From positions 6,698 to 30,697 of the forward strand of contig CAWTZF010000048.1 in NCBI GenBank assembly GCA_963920015.1: a stretch of 24,000 nt of DNA. Direction: 5' to 3'. A model generated the notes under the pieces. It saw only the letters and a program-made list of their open reading frames with translations. It was not told the origin of the DNA and did not search any database. Positions 2,642 to 12,438 of this stretch are shown here, piece by piece; the first letter of the stretch is position 1; each line of letters opens with the position of its first letter. Made by a program: the position numbers and the translations under genes. This stretch comes from an uncultured Nitrosopumilaceae archaeon. Lineage in GTDB: Archaea; Thermoproteota; Nitrososphaeria; Nitrososphaerales; Nitrosopumilaceae.

Positions 2642-4025
2642 TTGACTCTAAATAATCTAAAAATCCATCCAATTTGTCTTTAGTTATTCTGGCTCCAGCT
2701 GCAGCATCATGACCTCCGCCAACACCTTCGAATTTTTCTGCACCAGTTCTCATCAGGGCACTCAAATTTACATCTGATTTACATCCAAATGATTTTCTTG
2801 ATGAAAACTTAATCGTTCCTTCTTCACCATTAGTCCTCAAGATGACTATCTTTCCAGCATTTTTTGGAGAGCCGGCAATTAGAGAAGAGATCGTACCAGT
2901 CATTGTCTCTGGAACAACACCCTCACCATTTACCATTACACACATTTTACTTTCTGAAATCCTCCATCGCTCATTTGCTAAAATATTCATGTAGTTTCTA
3001 ATCATTTTTCTATATTCTTTGAGAATATTTTCACCTTCTTGTAGAAGCTTATTTCTATCTCCCATACATATCCCAATTCCAACACCTGCTTTGCTAATTC
3101 TTCCACAAGAATTTAGCATAGTTGAAAATTCTCTACAATCCCTCAAAAAACTCCTTCTATCTTCTCTAGGAAATGTATATGTATACCCAATTAATTCTTC
3201 GATAATCTCAGTTGCATTATTTCCTGGTGTAAATTTAGTAATTGATTCTATCAATACTCTCTTTTCTTCCTCATTTAATTCGGCAGGAACTCTCCATCTT
3301 CCACCATCTTTGATCTTTATTCCAGAAGATTTGATCAAGGAAAGACAAGCATCACGATTCCAAGTAAGTCCCTCAATGAAGGGTTGAGATGTAAAGGCCA
3401 AAGCATCTGGAATTGGCCTTGTTTCCCTTCCAACAAGTAATATGTCTAAATCAATGTCTAGAAGACCCTGCTCTTTTGCAGTGTTTGCAATCTCAAAATT
3501 TTTTCCAATAAAAGATTTCTTTGGTCCTTGATCTTGTCTATCTCCTAGTGCCGAGACTACAGCAATTGCAGATAGATCAATATTCTTCGCATCCAGAGAT
3601 TTTGAAGCTAGATATGCCATTCCACCAGCACAAATCTCCGTACCGCCATCTATGCCGAATTTCCAAGCATTGATCACTCTCTCATTATCTAGTTCTTCAT
3701 CCGGAATTTGATGATGATCTAAAACAGTCCAATTATCTCCTAATTGCTCATCCAGTTCCTTTGCAAAACCTCCTCCTAAATCTGTAATAACGTGAAAATC
3801 TCTTGAATCGTCTTTAAGATTTGCAATCACTTTCTTGTTGAATTCATTTGCTGTACTTAGAGTACATTTTGCACCAGCTCGAATCAATGCTTTTGTGATA
3901 ATACTACCTGAGGTTAATCCATCACAATCAATATGTGTAATTACTGAAATTGATTTTTTTGATTTAATACAATCAAAAATTTTGTCATCAAAATACCCAA
4001 ATGATTTTTCCAGTTCCTGGACCAT
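2607..4025 (-). CDS. DHH/DHHA1 phosphoesterase, archaeal RecJ/GAN (Cdc45-like) nuclease
   Basis: 472 aa. DHH motifs are HIDCDGLTSG, ITDLGGG and VLDHHQ. The DHHA1 motif is GVGGGHDAAAGA near the C-terminus. Confidence 0.85.
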   Translation of the reverse strand: MVQELEKSFGYFDDKIFDCIKSKKSISVITHIDCDGLTSGSIITKALIRAGAKCTLSTANEFNKKVIANLKDDSRDFHVITDLGGGFAKELDEQLGDNWTVLDHHQIPDEELDNERVINAWKFGIDGGTEICAGGMAYLASKSLDAKNIDLSAIAVVSALGDRQDQGPKKSFIGKNFEIANTAKEQGLLDIDLDILLVGRETRPIPDALAFTSQPFIEGLTWNRDACLSLIKSSGIKIKDGGRWRVPAELNEEEKRVLIESITKFTPGNNATEIIEELIGYTYTFPREDRRSFLRDCREFSTMLNSCGRISKAGVGIGICMGDRNKLLQEGENILKEYRKMIRNYMNILANERWRISESKMCVMVNGEGVVPETMTGTISSLIAGSPKNAGKIVILRTNGEEGTIKFSSRKSFGCKSDVNLSALMRTGAEKFEGVGGGHDAAAGARITKDKLDGFLDYLESNVINVQGSGNS

Positions 4026-4474
4026 TACTCTAGCTGGGCAACTACGGACTTATATTTCCAGTTTTCAGGAATTCTACCAATTCTTTTGTAGTATATTGAC
4101 AGTCTGTGAACCTTTGCTTCAATTAGCTCGAGGGATCTAACATTTCTTCTATCTCCCTTGTTTGATTTAAGATGTTTTTGTAATCCTACTGCCTTTTTCA
4201 CAATGTTGTCTAAATCCTCAGGCATATCTGAGACAAGTTTATTTTCTCCTAAAATTTTTGCAATTGTTTTCTTTGTAATTGGTTTAACAAGTGGAATTGC
4301 ATATTGATCACGAAGTTTAATTCCGATCTGACTTTGTGACAAACCTGCCTTTGCATACTTGACAACTAATTCTTCTACCTCAGTTGGATTTTGTGAAATC
4401 CATGAAGGAGCTCGAATTGTAACTGGTCTAGTCGAATGCGATTTTCCATGTCTATGACTATGAAGTCGTCCCAT
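4025..4474 (-). CDS. rps15: 30S ribosomal protein S15 (uS15/S13e)
   Basis: MGRLHSHRHGKSHSTRP is the typical archaeal S15 N-terminus. The ORF-track start at 4498 is a TTG lying inside a TATA-like box (TTTAATTT, plus 4497-4504). The ATG at 4474 sits about 27 nt downstream of that box, so I place the start at 4474. Confidence 0.9.
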   Translation of the reverse strand: MGRLHSHRHGKSHSTRPVTIRAPSWISQNPTEVEELVVKYAKAGLSQSQIGIKLRDQYAIPLVKPITKKTIAKILGENKLVSDMPEDLDNIVKKAVGLQKHLKSNKGDRRNVRSLELIEAKVHRLSIYYKRIGRIPENWKYKSVVAQLE

Positions 4475-4598
4475 GTCATGCGTGTGACTTCGGAACAAAA
4501 TTAAACGTTACTTGAAAAACTGATTCAAAATTTATCGGTCCATTATCAAGAATAAAGGTTAAATATCTATGAACTGTTTATTTGAGCAGGTAAACGGT

Positions 4599-4937
4599 AT
4601 GAATAAAGTACTACTAATCGGTTCTGTATTTGCCATATATGCTATCGGTTATTCTGTTGCTTATGGTACAACAGGTATTGCATATGCACAATACATGGGC
4701 AATGTCGGCGCAGGTGGAGAAACAGGCATAGCTACACTTGAAGAAACACTGGAACTTGCAAGAAGAAAAATGGAAGCAGTCGCAGCAAATCCAGACGCTG
4801 GTTCAGGAACTCCTATTCTTGATGCTACTGGTGTAGTTGGCGCAGCAATAATTTCACTTGCAGTCTTTGGTGGTATTTCAATGGTATTCTTTGTTAGAGG
4901 ACGATCTGGCAAATATGCTGCTGTTGGAACAGGCTAA
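4599..4937 (+). CDS. Small membrane protein with N-terminal hydrophobic helix or signal and C-terminal TM anchor; candidate accessory AMO subunit
   Basis: 112 aa from the ATG at 4599. The N-terminal hydrophobic segment is KVLLIGSVFAIYAIGYSVAYG, followed by an acidic helical middle. The C-terminal TM segment is VVGAAIISLAVFGGISMVFFV followed by RGRSGK. The ORF-track ATG at 4569 sits 3 nt after a TATA-like box (TTAAATAT 4559-4566) and is therefore unlikely to be transcribed. Confidence 0.6.
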   Translation: MNKVLLIGSVFAIYAIGYSVAYGTTGIAYAQYMGNVGAGGETGIATLEETLELARRKMEAVAANPDAGSGTPILDATGVVGAAIISLAVFGGISMVFFVRGRSGKYAAVGTG

Positions 4938-5049
4938 ACAAAACTATTTTTCTCTAATTTTATTATCATTGCTTAAACGAAATCTTAATCTCGCACATAT
5001 TGCAAATAACAGAAATATATATATCGCACAAATAGCGTTCACATAGATA

Positions 5050-5319
5050 ATGATTCCTCTCTTGGGCACGTTCCTAAGCATTCTGTCCTCAGTAACTGGG
5101 CAAATTGGACCAAACTATGACCCATTATTTTACGATGTTATGATTTACATCTTTGGAACCATCATGTTCACAATATTCCTACTTTCACTTATTTCATTTC
5201 ACTTACGTGTTCACGGATGGTCATACAAAGACAATCGTGAAAGATGGATTGATGAATTAGACGGACACTTTGAGAGAGAAGGTATTGGTCTAATTCCTGA
5301 CAATGGCAGATACTGGTAA
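5050..5319 (+). CDS. Small two-TM membrane protein, unknown function; candidate accessory AMO subunit
   Basis: 89 aa. The hydrophobic segments are MIPLLGTFLSILSSVTG and VMIYIFGTIMFTIFLLSLISFHL, followed by a charged C-terminal tail. An AATATATATAT box (5013-5024) is centred about 27-30 nt upstream of the ATG. T-rich sequence follows the stop. Confidence 0.6.
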   Translation: MIPLLGTFLSILSSVTGQIGPNYDPLFYDVMIYIFGTIMFTIFLLSLISFHLRVHGWSYKDNRERWIDELDGHFEREGIGLIPDNGRYW

Positions 5320-5379
5320 GATTATCTTTTCTTTTTCATTATTTTTCATAACTTTATAGAAAGTAGCTAAACTTCTAAT

Positions 5380-5937
5380 CTATGGCTTTGGTGGTAGAAA
5401 ATCTGATGGCAAGAAATCCCTATCCTTAGACTCCTCATAGTCTCTGGTGACAAATTCGGCCCTATACTTGTATCCATCTACAAGAAGAGTATTGATAAAA
5501 TCTGGAGATTCCTTTCCGTTAACAAAGATTTTTGACTTATCTTGTGCCATATCCTTAAATGGAAATCCGCCTTCGTGATATGTACTCCAAGTCCATAGAA
5601 AATGACCTATTTCATATGGATATTCTTCTTCCCATTCTGCGAAAATAACTCCGTCATCAGAAATTGTGTATAGAGAATGTGTACATCCTTCATTCATGCC
5701 AATTCTGGCTGGAATTTCGGCTTTGAGTCCGTCAATATAGAGTTCTAGAGTAGCTGAAATTCTGTATGGGGTTTCTCTATGATCAATACATGCTTTCAGA
5801 GGATCGTCTACGGATAAATAACCCTGAATTAGACTTGCACCTACCGCAAAAACAGCCCCAATGACGGCAACTTTCCCAAGAAAAATCAAATTTTTTCTGC
5901 GCCTTATGGGGTCTCCTCCAAAGAATGGGAAAAACAT
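5380..5937 (-). CDS. Membrane-anchored extracytoplasmic protein, unknown function
   Basis: 185 aa. It has a basic N-terminus then a single TM segment (LIFLGKVAVIGAVFAVGASLIQGYL). The roughly 140-aa soluble domain contains 2 Cys and several His/Trp/Tyr. A TATA-like CTTTAAGTAA (plus 5958-5967) is centred about 27 nt upstream of the ATG. It is tail-to-tail with the 89-aa gene, and its 5' end faces the 3' end of amoB. Confidence 0.6.
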   Translation of the reverse strand: MFFPFFGGDPIRRRKNLIFLGKVAVIGAVFAVGASLIQGYLSVDDPLKACIDHRETPYRISATLELYIDGLKAEIPARIGMNEGCTHSLYTISDDGVIFAEWEEEYPYEIGHFLWTWSTYHEGGFPFKDMAQDKSKIFVNGKESPDFINTLLVDGYKYRAEFVTRDYEESKDRDFLPSDFLPPKP

Positions 5938-6157
5938 GTTCTCTCTTTTTTAACGAATTACTTAAAGTCCTTTCCGAATTATTCAAATGGTTCATCAACT
6001 ACTTCTAGCACATCAAATTGATCTTATTCTGATTGATATTTAGATTTTCTATACTTAACCAAAAAGCCATTCATTAGAAAATGGAATGTACGTCCAAATA
6101 AAATTTTGAATTAAAATTATGATGATTTTGTAACAAAATGAAAAGGTGGAAGGTTGT

Positions 6158-6727
6158 TTAGATTACTTGCCAGGGACGTGTTGCAAAAACAACGACATAT
6201 GCAGCTCCAATCACGATTGCTTGGTATGCTATGTTTGCGTAAGGGATTGGTTTGAGAATATACTCGCCCTCTACAATTACAGTTTGTCCTGGACCAAGTC
6301 CTGGACCTACGTTAGCAACATTGAGTTGTGTGTGAACGTGATAAACGCCTGGTTCAAGTGCTTTAGCGCAAATTTGGTAATCTACAACAGAGTTTCCTTC
6401 AATATCAAAGACGTTACCTGGTGGGTCTCTAGATAGAATCTCCCATCTATTACCTGCATTTGTTGATTCTGAGAAGATTGATACCCATGCTCTAGACTCT
6501 CTTTCAATAAGACTGACTAAAGTGCCTTGAAGACAAAGTGTTTCGCCTGTGTTAAGAGATTGTCGATTAAAGCTTTCATCTTCAATTCGAATAAAACGAC
6601 TTTGAAGCTGTGCTTGTACTCCGTGTGCCTCTGCATTTGGAATGATATAATCAACCCAATTGAAACCAATTGTTCCTAATGCTAAAATTACACCGAGTCC
6701 TAATATCATTAGTTTTTGTTTGAACAT
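6158..6727 (-). CDS. amoB: Ammonia monooxygenase subunit B (archaeal type)
   Basis: 189 aa. A signal or TM segment precedes AEAHGVQAQLQSRFIRI, which is the mature N-terminal His region of archaeal AmoB. It has a single cupredoxin-like domain and a C-terminal TM segment ending TRPWQVI. Length and sequence match remembered Nitrosopumilus AmoB. Confidence 0.95.
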   Translation of the reverse strand: MFKQKLMILGLGVILALGTIGFNWVDYIIPNAEAHGVQAQLQSRFIRIEDESFNRQSLNTGETLCLQGTLVSLIERESRAWVSIFSESTNAGNRWEILSRDPPGNVFDIEGNSVVDYQICAKALEPGVYHVHTQLNVANVGPGLGPGQTVIVEGEYILKPIPYANIAYQAIVIGAAYVVVFATRPWQVI

Positions 6728-6877
6728 AGCTATCCCGTTAATTACACTGAGTGAAAACTTACGTCGTTATATGTTTTACCTTAAAAGTTGAGATCGAAAA
6801 TTAAATTCCATTGATTAACACTAATGTTATACAATGAAAGTACAATTTTCAATATTAGAATTTATGAATAATTTTGA

Positions 6878-6923
6878 ATGTTTTTATGTAAATTTTATGT
6901 TATAACCAATAGATCGTATGTAA
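6878..6923. promoter_or_regulatory. Phased TATGTWA motif array in the amoB/amoC divergent spacer
   Basis: The copies are gTTTTTATGTAAA (6878-6890), TTTTATGTTA (6891-6900) and gTATGTAAAA (6914-6923). Spacings between copies are 11 and 21 nt, roughly one and two helical turns. The array lies 65-110 nt upstream of the amoC start. Confidence 0.25.
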
Positions 6924-6957
6924 AAATTCATAAAATCTCTTTAATTTTGAACACATC

Positions 6958-6965
6958 TTTTATAT
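6958..6965 (+). promoter_or_regulatory. amoC TATA box (leaderless configuration)
   Basis: TTTTATAT is centred about 27 nt upstream of the ATG at 6989. That is the spacing expected between an archaeal TATA box and the transcription start site. Confidence 0.5.
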
Positions 6966-6988
6966 CTCAATCAATGACCATTACTACT

Positions 6989-7552
6989 ATGGCACAATTG
7001 CCCGCATTAATCCCAAAGGAAGTTGAGATTCAGAGACTTAAGAAAATCTGGATGATCATCATTGCTATGGGTTCAACTGCTGCATCTGTAGAGGTCGACA
7101 ACTTTGTCGATGGTTCTCTACATCAAACTTCTATCAGAGATAGTGCATTCACACCAGCTCACTGGTGGTTGTACAGTCACTTTGTAGCTCTCCCACTAGG
7201 TTGGGCTTCAGCTGCAATGTATGATAGAAAAGTACCAATTCTCAGAGGTCCAAATAACTCTATGAACACTGGTTTGAAGATGACCATTCTTGGTTACTTA
7301 GCAACAATGTTCACTATTGGAATCAATGAAATGTGGCACTTTTGGTTTGTAGAGGAAATATTTTCAGTACCGAATCACTGGATGTTCAATATGGGTGTAG
7401 TCGTAGCCTTTATGGGCGCTCTTGCATACGTAGTTAGAGTATATGCAAGACTAATCGAACTTGGCGCAGAAACACCAGGTGAGAATCCATACATTGCTGA
7501 AATGTACAAGATGGCCTTAGAGGGCAAACTGTACAGCAGAGCAATCCCATAA
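6989..7552 (+). CDS. amoC: Ammonia monooxygenase subunit C (archaeal type)
   Basis: It starts MAQLPALIPKEVEIQRLKKIW and ends LEGKLYSRAIP, matching remembered Nitrosopumilus AmoC almost throughout. The ORF-track start (6878) and the ATG at 6974 lie within or upstream of the TATA box. 6974 remains a possible alternative start. Confidence 0.93.
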   Translation: MAQLPALIPKEVEIQRLKKIWMIIIAMGSTAASVEVDNFVDGSLHQTSIRDSAFTPAHWWLYSHFVALPLGWASAAMYDRKVPILRGPNNSMNTGLKMTILGYLATMFTIGINEMWHFWFVEEIFSVPNHWMFNMGVVVAFMGALAYVVRVYARLIELGAETPGENPYIAEMYKMALEGKLYSRAIP

Positions 7553-7560
7553 ACAAAAAA

Positions 7561-7583
7561 GTGCGAAAAGCACACTTTTTTTT
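7561..7583 (+). terminator. amoC terminator: short hairpin plus T8 run
   Basis: GTGC-gaaaa-GCAC hairpin at 7561-7573, followed by eight T (7576-7583), 9 nt after the amoC stop codon. Archaeal RNA polymerase terminates at oligo-T tracts. Confidence 0.55.
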
Positions 7584-7594
7584 CTTTATTTTAA

Positions 7595-7657
7595 TTTTAT
7601 AAACAGAGATCGATTTTTACACTTTCTTTAAGAAAGACTTAAAAGGATTTGGAGGTG
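7595..7657 (+). promoter_or_regulatory. amoX promoter (TTTTATAAA) and Shine-Dalgarno-like GGAGGTG
   Basis: The TATA-like box is at 7595-7603. GGAGGTG at 7651-7657 lies 11 nt upstream of the amoX ATG. Unlike amoA and amoC, this gene appears to have a roughly 40-nt leader. Confidence 0.4.
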
Positions 7658-7668
7658 GTATAATCCAA

Positions 7669-8031
7669 ATGACTCTTCCAAAAGGATTTGGTTCAGCAGG
7701 AGGAGGCGGAGCAGGTGCTGCTGACGTCGAACGTATGATAGGTAGACGTATTGAAAATATGGTCGGTATGTTTACACTTGCATACATTGCAGCATGGTTA
7801 GCAACTTTTGCTGGTACAGCCGCAGGATATTTCTATTATCCATGGGCATATCCAACAAACAGTGGTCACTTTGCGTTTATCGTCCTAACAATTGTGGAAT
7901 CAATTGGATACATCTTCGTTGTCAAAATCGCTGAAGAGGGCTCTGCTAAGAAAAGTAATTATCTTATTGCAGGTACAGTCGGTGTTATAGCTATTCTTAC
8001 TCCACTTATAGTGATATTCGTTGGTCACTAA
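7669..8031 (+). CDS. amoX: AmoX, small membrane protein conserved between amoC and amoA in AOA
   Basis: 120 aa. It has a Gly/Ala-rich N-terminus and hydrophobic helices (MVGMFTLAYIAAWLATFAGTAAGYF, FAFIVLTIVESIGYIFVV, LIAGTVGVIAILTPLIVIFVG). Its position between amoC and amoA is the defining synteny of amoX. Confidence 0.85.
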   Translation: MTLPKGFGSAGGGGAGAADVERMIGRRIENMVGMFTLAYIAAWLATFAGTAAGYFYYPWAYPTNSGHFAFIVLTIVESIGYIFVVKIAEEGSAKKSNYLIAGTVGVIAILTPLIVIFVGH

Positions 8032-8046
8032 AACCAACTTCCGACA

Positions 8047-8059
8047 TTTTTCTATTTTT
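8047..8059 (+). terminator. T-runs downstream of amoX
   Basis: Two T5 runs (8047-8051 and 8055-8059) lie 15-28 nt after the amoX stop. Confidence 0.35.
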
Positions 8060-8100
8060 CCACTAGAAACTGTATTCCGATCTTCCTAGTGTAGTAAAAT

Positions 8101-8109
8101 TTTATATAT
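8101..8109 (+). promoter_or_regulatory. amoA TATA box (leaderless configuration)
   Basis: TTTATATAT is preceded by an A-rich BRE-like GTAAAA. Its centre is about 27 nt upstream of the amoA ATG (8132). Confidence 0.5.
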
Positions 8110-8131
8110 TGACACTTTATTCTATTGCGTA

Positions 8132-8782
8132 ATGGTCTGGCTTAGACGATGTACTCACTACTTATTCATAGTAGTAGTTGCGGTTAACTCAACCCTGTTG
8201 GTAATTAATGCAGGAGACTATATCTTCTATACAGATTGGGCCTGGACGTCATTCGTAGTATTTTCTATAGCAAATACTCTGATGATGTCTGTAGGTGCAG
8301 TATACTACCTGTTGTTTACTGGAGTTCCAGGAACAGCCACGTATTATGGTCTGATTATGCAGGTGTATACATGGGTAGCAAAGGGTGCTTGGTTTGCACT
8401 TGGATATCCATACGACTTTATCGTAACACCAATGTGGATACCATCATGCATGTTGTTAGACTTAGTATATTGGGCGACAAAGAAGAACAAGCACTCACTG
8501 ATACTATTCGGTGGAGTGCTGGTAGGAATGTCGTTCCCACTGTTCAATATGATTAACTTGTTAACGGTCGCAGACCCGCTAGAAACTGCGTTCAAATATC
8601 CAAGACCCACATTACCACCATATATGACGCCAATCGAGCCGCAGGTCGGAAAGTTCTATAACAGTCCGGTTGCGCTTGGTGCGGGTGCTGGTGCTGTGTT
8701 GGCAGTTACGTTTACTGCGCTGGGTGCTAAACTCAATACGTGGACGTATCGATGGATGGCCGCTTGGTCAAAGTGGGACTAA
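8132..8782 (+). CDS. amoA: Ammonia monooxygenase subunit A (archaeal type)
   Basis: 216 aa. MVWLRRCTHYLFIVVVAVNSTLL..., FKYPRPTLPPYMTPIEPQVGKFYNSPVALG... and ...NTWTYRWMAAW are near-identical to remembered Nitrosopumilus AmoA. A T7 run (8809-8815) follows the stop. Confidence 0.97.
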   Translation: MVWLRRCTHYLFIVVVAVNSTLLVINAGDYIFYTDWAWTSFVVFSIANTLMMSVGAVYYLLFTGVPGTATYYGLIMQVYTWVAKGAWFALGYPYDFIVTPMWIPSCMLLDLVYWATKKNKHSLILFGGVLVGMSFPLFNMINLLTVADPLETAFKYPRPTLPPYMTPIEPQVGKFYNSPVALGAGAGAVLAVTFTALGAKLNTWTYRWMAAWSKWD

Positions 8783-8949
8783 AAATCCAAACTTTTCATT
8801 CTCTTAAATTTTTTTAGAGTGTTGTAAGCTCGAAAAATTTTTGAGCGAAATTTGTATTTAAGCTATTCTACATTTGATTAAAAAATATTGTACACATTGT
8901 AATCTTTTACAAATTTACCAGTATTCAATAAAATTCAAAACCATGAGGA

Positions 8950-9810
8950 ATGAAGCCTCAATATCGTCAGATTACCATCACGGTTCCAAAACCATTCGTA
9001 AAATGGGCCGGAGGAAAGAGGCAATTAATACCAGTTTTGAACAAGGAATTTCCTCAAAAATTTGGTACCTACTTTGAGCCATTTTTAGGAGGTGGTGCTG
9101 TCTTGTTTCATCTACTATCACAAAATCCAAATCAAAAGTGCTCCGTTTCAGATCTTAACTCTGATTTAGTTCTTACATACATAACAATTCGAGACAGAGT
9201 CGAAGAACTGATATCTTCTCTCAAAAAACATTCCAAGAAATATTCAGATGACAAAAATTCTTACTATTATAAAATTAGAGAAAAAGAACCAAAAGAACAG
9301 ATCGAAAAAAGTTCACGATTACTCTTTCTAAATAGAACATGCTTTAATGGTCTCTACAGAGTCAACAGCAAAGGAAAATTTAATGTTCCTCTAGGGAGAT
9401 ATTCAAATCCAAATATAGTAAATGCAGAAAATCTGATGGCAGTAAGTAGAATCCTTCAATCCCAAAAAATCACTATTATATGTCGTGATTTTTCTTCAAT
9501 TTTAGAAGACGCAAAAAAAGACGATTTCATCTACTTTGATCCTCCCTATCAACCAGCTAGTCAGACTGCCAATTTTACAAGCTATACTAATAGAGACTTT
9601 AATTTTGAAGATCTTAAAAGATTAGCAGATCTTTGCAATGATCTTGATTCAAAAGGATGTAAAGTAGTTTTGTCAAATTCCAATACCTCTGAAGTAAAAG
9701 ACATGTTTGATAGAAACTGGAAAATTAAAAAAATTCAAGTCAATCGCGCCATCAATTCTGATTCAAAAAAGAGAACTGGACATTCAGAATTAGTCATAAA
9801 AAATTACTAA
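8950..9810 (+). CDS. dam: Dam-family (D12 class, alpha-type) N6-adenine DNA methyltransferase
   Basis: 286 aa. VKWAGGKRQL and FEPFLGGGAV (AdoMet motif I) are N-terminal, and FDPPY (motif IV) is C-terminal. That motif order matches Dam, DpnIIA and EcoRV-type methyltransferases. The stop codon (9808-9810) directly abuts the 3' end of tRNA-Thr. Confidence 0.85.
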   Translation: MKPQYRQITITVPKPFVKWAGGKRQLIPVLNKEFPQKFGTYFEPFLGGGAVLFHLLSQNPNQKCSVSDLNSDLVLTYITIRDRVEELISSLKKHSKKYSDDKNSYYYKIREKEPKEQIEKSSRLLFLNRTCFNGLYRVNSKGKFNVPLGRYSNPNIVNAENLMAVSRILQSQKITIICRDFSSILEDAKKDDFIYFDPPYQPASQTANFTSYTNRDFNFEDLKRLADLCNDLDSKGCKVVLSNSNTSEVKDMFDRNWKIKKIQVNRAINSDSKKRTGHSELVIKNY

Positions 9811-9883
9811 GCTTCGAGCGGGATCCGGACCCGCGACCTTTACCTTACCAAGGTAACGCTCTACCAGGCTGAGCTATCGAAGC
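9811..9883 (-). tRNA. tRNA-Thr (anticodon GGU), no intron, atypical T-loop
   Basis: The reverse complement folds as GCTTCGA/TA/GCTC-AGCCTGGTA-GAGC/G/TTACC-TTGGTAA-GGTAA/AGGTC/GCGGG-TCCGGAT-CCCGC/TCGAAGC. All four stems are perfect. The T-loop is UCCGGAU instead of the UUCRAAU seen in the other four tRNAs here. A TATA-like AATTATAAGG lies about 29 nt upstream. Confidence 0.8.
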
Positions 9884-11504: not shown

Positions 11505-11514
11505 AAAACAGATA

Positions 11515-11603
11515 TGGGCCGAGTGAGATTCGAACTCACGACCTTTCGATGTCTGAATATGATTTATCAGTCGAACGCTCCAGCCAAGCTGAGCTACCGG
11601 CCC
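11515..11603 (-). tRNA. tRNA-Ile (anticodon GAU) with one canonical intron
   Basis: The reverse complement reads GGGCCGG/TA/GCTC..GAGC/G/TTCGA-CTGATA[14-nt intron]A-TCGAA/AGGTC/GTGAG-TTCGAAT-CTCAC/TCGGCCC/A. The intron is 11551-11564. The BHB is perfect: central helix CUGA/UCAG and bulges UA|A and AC|A. Confidence 0.88.
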
Positions 11604-11636
11604 ACGAAAAAAACTCGAGGATGCAGTCATTTAAGT

Positions 11637-12279: not shown

Positions 12280-12353
12280 GGGCTGATAGTATAGCCTGGT
12301 AGTATACCCGCCTTGCACGCGGGGGGTCAGGGGTTCAAATCCCCTTCAGTCCA
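12280..12353 (+). tRNA. tRNA-Ala (anticodon UGC)
   Basis: It folds as GGGCTGA/TA/GTAT-AGCCTGGTA-GTAT/A/CCCGC-CTTGCAC-GCGGG/GGGTC/AGGGG-TTCAAAT-CCCCT/TCAGTCC/A. The G3:U70 pair characteristic of tRNA-Ala is present. Confidence 0.9.
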
Positions 12354-12438
12354 CTTACACAATTTTATACCTGACGATCTACAGTGGGTTTCATTTCTCT
12401 GGATGGATTTAAATAGCATTTATTATCGATAGTTTAGC

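Follow-up and report, generated by a model that had tools for sequence, protein, structure and literature searches.

In archaeal ammonia monooxygenase (AMO), two small accessory subunits named AmoY and AmoZ were defined by Hodgskiss et al. in 2023 as NVIE_004540 and NVIE_004550 of N. viennensis, respectively (PMC10030591). Their orthologues co-migrate with AmoABCX in blue native polyacrylamide gel electrophoresis (BN-PAGE), form disuccinimidyl sulfoxide (DSSO) cross-links with the complex and are co-expressed with its genes, the co-migration and cross-linking having been observed in two ammonia-oxidizing archaea (AOA), and both families were reported to be exclusive to AOA (Table S15, PMC10030591). 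A 2026 preprint describing the cryo-electron microscopy (cryo-EM) structure of the N. maritimus enzyme renames AmoX, AmoY and AmoZ as AmoD, AmoF and AmoG, and presents AmoF and AmoG as a clamp-like heterodimer that bridges adjacent protomers (bioRxiv 10.64898/2026.08.31.748207). Here we compare with these systems a 24,000-nucleotide (nt) stretch of DNA, hereafter the window, from an uncultured Nitrosopumilaceae archaeon (assembly GCA_963920015.1, contig CAWTZF010000048.1), in which two short open reading frames (ORFs) on the forward strand lie beside amoB: ORF1 (4599-4937), encoding 112 amino acids (aa; 11.3 kDa), and ORF2 (5050-5319), encoding 89 aa (10.4 kDa). We conclude that ORF1 is AmoZ and ORF2 is AmoY, two small archaea-specific accessory subunits of AMO, and place the probability of this reading at about 95%.

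In the first-pass annotation of this DNA, the two ORFs were put forward as the best candidates for AmoY and AmoZ, or for further undescribed subunits, and a 2023 study by Hodgskiss et al. was given as the source of these names, a citation that proves correct (PMC10030591). How can each ORF be assigned to one of the two families? Table S16 of that study lists the genes of Ca. Nitrosarchaeum limnium SFB1 as Nlim_1890 (amoA), Nlim_1891 (amoX), Nlim_1892 (amoC), Nlim_1893 (amoB), Nlim_1896 (amoY) and Nlim_1898 (amoZ) (PMC10030591). In blastp comparisons ORF1 matches Nlim_1898 over its full length (62% identity, 110 aa aligned, E = 7e-47), and ORF2 matches Nlim_1896 with 85% identity over 89 of 89 aa (E = 1e-61). 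The full-length matches together with the names in Table S16 identify ORF1 as AmoZ and ORF2 as AmoY, which settles the question of which is which and renders the proposal of undescribed subunits superfluous for both. Moreover, one ORF1 homologue carries the name Nlim_1898 in NCBI, and the N. limnium locus from which it derives (L001) has the gene order of the window.

The histidine content of the proteins provides a further fingerprint. In the preprint, the histidines of the molecular dynamics set-up are His55 and His73 for NmAmoF and His67 for NmAmoD, with none listed for NmAmoG (10.64898/2026.08.31.748207). Our comparison set consisted of 80 Nitrosopumilaceae genome loci, which together with two N. 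limnium-type loci make 82, and H55 and H73 of ORF2 are conserved in 82/82 of these and match His55 and His73 of NmAmoF. ORF1 contains no histidine, as is the case for NmAmoG, and the AmoX of the window has a histidine at residue 67 (counted by eye on the translation), which fits His67 of NmAmoD. The AmoY family, named AmoF in the preprint, includes NVIE_004540, NCAV_0488, Nmar_1506 and Nlim_1896, and its members measure 82 aa in N. viennensis (9.56 kDa), 85 aa in N. cavascurensis and 89 aa (10.4 kDa) in the window. The AmoZ family, named AmoG, includes NVIE_004550, NCAV_0486, Nmar_1507 and Nlim_1898, with 123 aa in N. viennensis, 130 aa in N. cavascurensis and 112 aa in the window.

That ORF1 and ORF2 are genes is evident from their conservation. 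A protein collection contains 192 homologues of ORF1, almost all of 106-112 aa, and 118 homologues of ORF2, almost all of 83-94 aa; in a profile search, relatives of ORF2 were found to be encoded by at least 559 species genomes. All of the named genomes with an ORF2 relative belong to Nitrosopumilaceae, Nitrosotalea or Nitrososphaerales, save a few evidently mislabelled metagenome-assembled genomes, and Nitrosocaldus was not recovered among them. The nearest of the 80 loci has ~74-76% nucleotide identity to the window, and a protein identical to the 89-aa product was recovered from two short metagenome contigs only. Comparison with these 80 loci gives nucleotide differences at codon positions 1/2/3 of 0.28/0.24/0.46 for ORF1 and 0.13/0.04/0.35 for ORF2, and such an excess at the third position is expected where purifying selection acts on a coding sequence. 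Constraint is far stronger on ORF2 than on ORF1, with a median identity to the 80 loci of 87% versus 58%.

The gene order around the two ORFs is likewise conserved. The dominant order across the 82 loci, with strands relative to the window, is S15 (reverse), AmoZ and AmoY (forward), a gene for a 185-aa product (reverse), in part of the loci a gene like Nlim_1894 (reverse), AmoB (reverse), and then AmoC, AmoX and AmoA (forward). AmoZ stands next to AmoY in 79/82 loci, nearly always 100-200 nt upstream of it, and the rps15 gene for ribosomal protein S15, which adjoins amoZ in the window (4025-4498, reverse strand), lies alongside in 74 loci. Linkage to the amo genes, which the first-pass annotation suggested looking for across Nitrosopumilales genomes, is conserved in the 80 species loci. 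Its description of two short genes of 112 and 89 aa within 1.6 kb of amoB also holds, as the coordinates are right and the distance is ~1.56 kb. The amoABCX and amoYZ clusters were reported to lie 1-2 genes apart in most Nitrosopumilaceae (PMC10030591), and the single gene between amoY and amoB in the window agrees with this statement. Similarly, the N. viennensis order NVIE_004540, NVIE_004550, rps15p is that of the rps15-amoZ-amoY neighbourhood in the window.

Nitrososphaerales-type metagenome contigs from ENA (L083-L086) likewise have AmoZ and AmoY side by side, with rps15 and amoB on either side of the pair; NCBI labels their AmoY cluster as Nitrososphaerales/Nitrososphaeraceae, and their AmoZ has 106 aa and 35% identity to ORF1 (pairwise E = 1e-13). 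As a separate observation, these contigs carry rps15-amoZ-amoY-amoB and, further on, amoX-amoA together, in a cluster without amoC and without the 185-aa gene, and this layout is more clustered than the ‘scattered’ arrangement described for Nitrososphaeraceae. A small gene found beside amoB in N. limnium (Nlim_1894, 104 aa, L001:11388-11702) has no homologue in the corresponding interval of the window (5938-6157). Nlim_1894 occupies the same position as Nmar_1504, a soluble cupredoxin-like protein (10.64898/2026.08.31.748207), and ~16/80 loci share the shorter layout of the window, which lacks the small gene at this position. Annotation of N. limnium also places Nlim_1897, a 41-codon antisense ORF, between amoZ and amoY (L001:10352-10477). 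A tblastn match to it occurs in the window at 5081-4953 on the reverse strand (49% identity, E = 1e-9). This is where the conserved promoter and 5′ end of amoY lie, and for this reason Nlim_1897 is most likely not a gene.

Both hydropathy and the AlphaFold2 (AF2) model support the layout of the 112-aa product that was given in the first-pass annotation: the N-terminus forms a hydrophobic helix and the C-terminus a transmembrane (TM) segment, and between them lies a charged helix, which the annotation called acidic. Hydropathy places segments at residues 3-23 and 71-101, and AF2 places helices at 3-32, 47-63 and 78-102. Residues 1-30 resemble a signal peptide and end in AYA|Q, with an invariant A-Q junction, and the motif A-x-A|Q-Y (AYA|QY) is present in 70/79 AmoZ homologues. 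The junction is followed by a conserved QYMGNVG, the charged helix TLEETLELARR (~47-63) and an invariant GSGTP, after which the TM segment (~78-102) leads into the basic tail RGRSGKYAAVGTG. AmoZ was counted as a single-TM protein by Phobius (Table 2, PMC10030591), and the preprint refers to ‘single-transmembrane NmAmoG’ (10.64898/2026.08.31.748207). Given this published count, the N-terminal hydrophobic segment is best read as, and looks like, a cleaved signal peptide.

The 89-aa product was described in the first-pass annotation as having two TM helices, and in this respect the description must be amended. Only residues 25-54 exceed the TM hydropathy threshold, corresponding to an AF2 helix at 25-55, whereas the N-terminal helix (3-18) spans 16 residues and stays below the threshold with a maximum 19-residue hydropathy of 1.47. 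A single TM segment is also the published score for AmoY (TM=1, Hodgskiss Table 2, PMC10030591). The protein further contains the invariant GPNYDPLFYDVM, a charged C-terminal helix at 62-77 and the conserved end GLIPDNG(K/R)YW, and 14 of the 37 residues of its tail are charged.

Each gene has its own TATA-like box, as the first-pass annotation claimed, and both boxes are recovered as phylogenetic footprints. The amoZ promoter block agaataaaGGTTAAATAt (4549-4566, forward strand) is conserved while its flanking positions vary. Within it, the TATA-like GTTAAATA (4558-4565) occurs in 72/74 distinct upstream sequences, mostly at -41/-42 from the amoZ ATG. The same number of upstream sequences (72/74) contain AGGTAA (4588-4593, forward strand) at -11/-12 from the ATG, an element that may be Shine-Dalgarno-like or part of the transcript start region. 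The amoY promoter block aTATATATATcgca (5015-5028, forward strand) lies ~30-35 nt before the ATG. It includes TATATAT (within 5015-5024), which is found in 73/76 distinct upstream sequences at -30 to -32 from the amoY ATG, and ATATCGCA, which is found at a fixed distance in 62/76. The position of TATATAT at -30 to -32 suggests that the amoY mRNA is leaderless or has a very short leader.

The amoZ start at 4599 differs from public gene calls, which begin the gene at an ATG at 4569 and give a product of 122 aa. This longer call is rejected as an over-extension and annotation artefact because the ATG at 4569 directly follows the TATA block and because the homologues begin at an ATG aligned with 4599 (in 69/74 cases). 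At the other end of each gene a T-rich tract follows the stop codon on the forward strand, again as claimed in the first-pass annotation. The tract after amoZ (4945-4964) has T5 at 4947-4951 and T4 at 4958-4961 and is a candidate archaeal oligo-T terminator; the tract after amoY (5322-5346) has runs of T4, T5 and T5 with a near-invariant cttttcattattttt and is likewise a candidate terminator. A run of T5 or more within 60 nt is present in 77/80 loci after amoY but in only 28/77 after amoZ, where the T-rich pattern is nonetheless conserved. The separate promoters fit published data for N. maritimus, in which expression of amoZ falls below that of amoY (PMC10030591).

Could these assignments be explained in another way? 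The two ORFs are short, and mechanical ORFs overlap them on both strands, so that one might regard them as spurious open frames in AT-rich intergenic DNA. This proposal is already refuted, and its probability is negligible: full-length homologues number in the hundreds, both families have invariant motifs, substitutions are in excess at the third codon position, the promoters are kept at fixed distances, and peptides of the orthologues have been detected by mass spectrometry. If the ORFs are genes, one of them could still encode a different or undescribed subunit, such as ‘AmoE’ or ‘AmoH’ in the nomenclature of the preprint. N. maritimus has three genes (1505-1507) between Nmar_1504 and rps15, so counting by position could mislead, and the preprint leaves AmoH unidentified (10.64898/2026.08.31.748207). 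We consider this extremely improbable, however, as both ORFs match the listed N. limnium amoY and amoZ genes from end to end and the His55/His73 fingerprint is that of AmoF. The description of NmAmoE, which has a single TM and a C-terminal domain, is encoded in the amo cluster, is marine-specific and poorly conserved and is absent from terrestrial lineages (10.64898/2026.08.31.748207), fits instead the neighbouring 185-aa gene. The product of that gene (5380-5937, reverse strand), which lies between amoY and amoB, has one N-terminal TM at ~15-43 by hydropathy and a C-terminal domain of ~140 aa, and it has 47% identity to Nlim_1895. The gene is present in 80/82 Nitrosopumilaceae loci at 36-62% identity, the lowest of the cluster, and is absent from the Nitrososphaerales-type loci examined. 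It is the positional equivalent of Nlim_1895/Nmar_1505 and is probably the AmoE subunit of the preprint, the comparison with NmAmoE being one of description and the link to Nmar_1505 one of elimination.

A further possibility is that ORF1 and ORF2 encode small conserved membrane proteins whose position beside rps15 and amo is incidental and which serve another membrane function, for example as unrelated respiratory or transport accessories, without being AMO subunits. Neither has a match in Pfam or NCBIfam and every database name is ‘hypothetical protein’, AmoZ was uncorrelated with AmoABC in BN-PAGE of N. viennensis, and amoZ expression is lower in N. maritimus (PMC10030591). However, in two AOA the orthologues were found to co-migrate with AmoABCX and to be cross-linked to it, they belong to families reported as AOA-exclusive (Table S15, PMC10030591), they have been modelled into the cryo-EM density of N. 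maritimus AMO (10.64898/2026.08.31.748207), and at least 80 species retain the linkage to amoB. Published data on the complex already contradict a bystander role, which we regard as very unlikely.

Some observations speak against the identification of ORF1 and ORF2 as AmoZ and AmoY. The association of AmoZ with the complex is weaker, and in N. maritimus its gene shows lower expression (PMC10030591). Scans against Pfam and NCBIfam returned no family model for either ORF, and the connection to the founding members in N. viennensis and N. maritimus runs through Table S16 for N. limnium, gene order and protein size. The AF2 monomers have modest confidence, with a predicted local distance difference test (pLDDT) score of 60 for AmoZ and 71 for AmoY. 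The structural role of both subunits derives from the text of a preprint (10.64898/2026.08.31.748207). Finally, ORF1 has no cysteine and neither do 79/79 of its Nitrosopumilaceae homologues, so the disulfide predicted for the N. viennensis AmoZ is impossible here. This outer-domain disulfide does not define the family, as it was predicted only in the N. viennensis AlphaFold model and the published Nlim_1898 likewise lacks cysteine. PDB sequence searches with ORF1, ORF2 and AmoA returned nothing relevant in a copy of the database without the archaeal AMO entry 9XJ2. These limits leave the orthology unweakened, and the structural role is one that rests on published work.

What might the two proteins do in this organism? 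The present comparison shows that the two ORFs are genes and gives their orthology, their synteny, the footprints of their promoters and the arrangement of their helices; membership of the complex and the clamp role are taken from the literature. In the N. maritimus structure, the N-termini of AmoF and AmoG contact the periplasmic domains, their charged C-termini contact the cytoplasmic side, and the contacts are electrostatic; together with the unidentified AmoH the two subunits close the base of the trimer, and the TM of AmoG is proposed as a stand-in for a helix missing from archaeal AmoB (10.64898/2026.08.31.748207). The basic tail of AmoZ and the charged tail of AmoY in the window are consistent with this picture. 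In the proposed working, each gene is transcribed from its own TATA-box promoter, amoY as a probably leaderless and amoZ as a probably short-leadered mRNA. AmoZ would be exported by its N-terminal signal-like segment, which is probably cleaved after AYA, and the mature protein would then display its charged helix and GSGTP loop on the outer (pseudo-periplasmic) side, cross the membrane once and end in a short basic cytoplasmic tail. AmoY would insert with its short N-terminal helix on the outside, one TM and, on the inside, its C-terminal helix with many charged residues. If the proteins behave as their N. maritimus homologues do, the two would pair as a clamp-like heterodimer lodged between adjacent AmoABCX protomers, where their charged termini may hold the trimer together. 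Such a clamp could partly substitute for the second TM helix and the C-terminal cupredoxin domain, both of which are missing from archaeal AmoB. One could speculate, on the basis of the conserved but differing promoter and leader layouts, that the two halves of the clamp are regulated separately and the stability of the trimer is tuned via the supply of AmoZ, and that the lineage of the window, which lacks the gene at the Nmar_1504 position, assembles a slightly different accessory shell, but we hold this to be unlikely.

The remaining AMO genes of the window follow on the far side of the 185-aa gene. The amoB gene (6158-6727, reverse strand) encodes 189 aa, matches Pfam Monooxygenase_B and NCBIfam AmoB and has 77% identity to Nlim_1893. 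The amoC gene (6989-7552, forward strand) matches Pfam AmoC and has 93% identity to Nlim_1892 from residue 1; its true start is 6989, with the mechanical ORF opening at 6878. The first-pass annotation called amoX syntenic here, and amoX, the counterpart of NmAmoD, is indeed found at 7669-8031 (forward strand, 120 aa) between amoC and amoA, with 71% identity to Nlim_1891, which Table S16 lists as amoX. The amoA gene (8132-8782, forward strand) encodes 216 aa and matches Pfam Archaeal_AmoA (E = 2.5e-111). Directly downstream of amoA is a gene for a D12-class N6-adenine DNA methyltransferase (8950-9810, forward strand; Pfam E = 7e-65), and a 286-aa gene of the same family at the equivalent position in N. 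limnium (L001:14574-15434) indicates that this neighbour is conserved. An Rfam scan of the window from 4000 to 9000 gave no match. Farther along, ARAGORN calls a 91-nt tRNA-like gene at 11514-11604 (reverse strand) with an odd 4-base anticodon (gata), located between tRNA-Thr (9810-9883) and tRNA-Ala (12280-12354), and this may be an intron-containing archaeal tRNA.

In the ammonia oxidizers that are most abundant on Earth, nitrification begins with the enzyme to which AmoY and AmoZ belong, and the correct annotation of both subunits matters for that reason. In public records both proteins are still named ‘hypothetical protein’ and have no Pfam or NCBIfam model, and amoZ is often over-extended by 10 codons. 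The feature itself is already published and the window adds no new biology; it shows the published arrangement of amoABCX and amoYZ in a further Nitrosopumilaceae genome.

Set beside the described systems, the AmoZ of the window resembles Nlim_1898 and published AmoZ in its signal-like N-terminus, outer helical segment, single C-terminal TM and rps15-amoZ-amoY position, and it differs in the outer segment of the mature protein, for which a single helix is predicted. Its evolution is also much faster than that of AmoY, as the median identities of 58% and 87% across the 80 loci indicate. AmoY resembles Nlim_1896 and published AmoY in its length (89 versus 82-89 aa), its single TM, its place adjoining amoZ and its separation from amoB by one gene. 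The differences are minor: in contrast to its relatives, most of which have Trp at position 51, it carries an extra His there, and in the lineage of the window amoY is separated from amoB by one gene rather than two. A functional analogy with bacterial AmoB can be drawn from the literature, in which the AmoY/AmoZ pair supplies the contacts between protomers that a C-terminal cupredoxin domain makes in bacteria, and the TM of AmoZ is proposed to take the place of the AmoB helix missing from archaea (10.64898/2026.08.31.748207). Unlike these parts of bacterial AmoB, AmoY and AmoZ are separate small polypeptides without a cupredoxin fold, and the two arrangements are likened by function alone.

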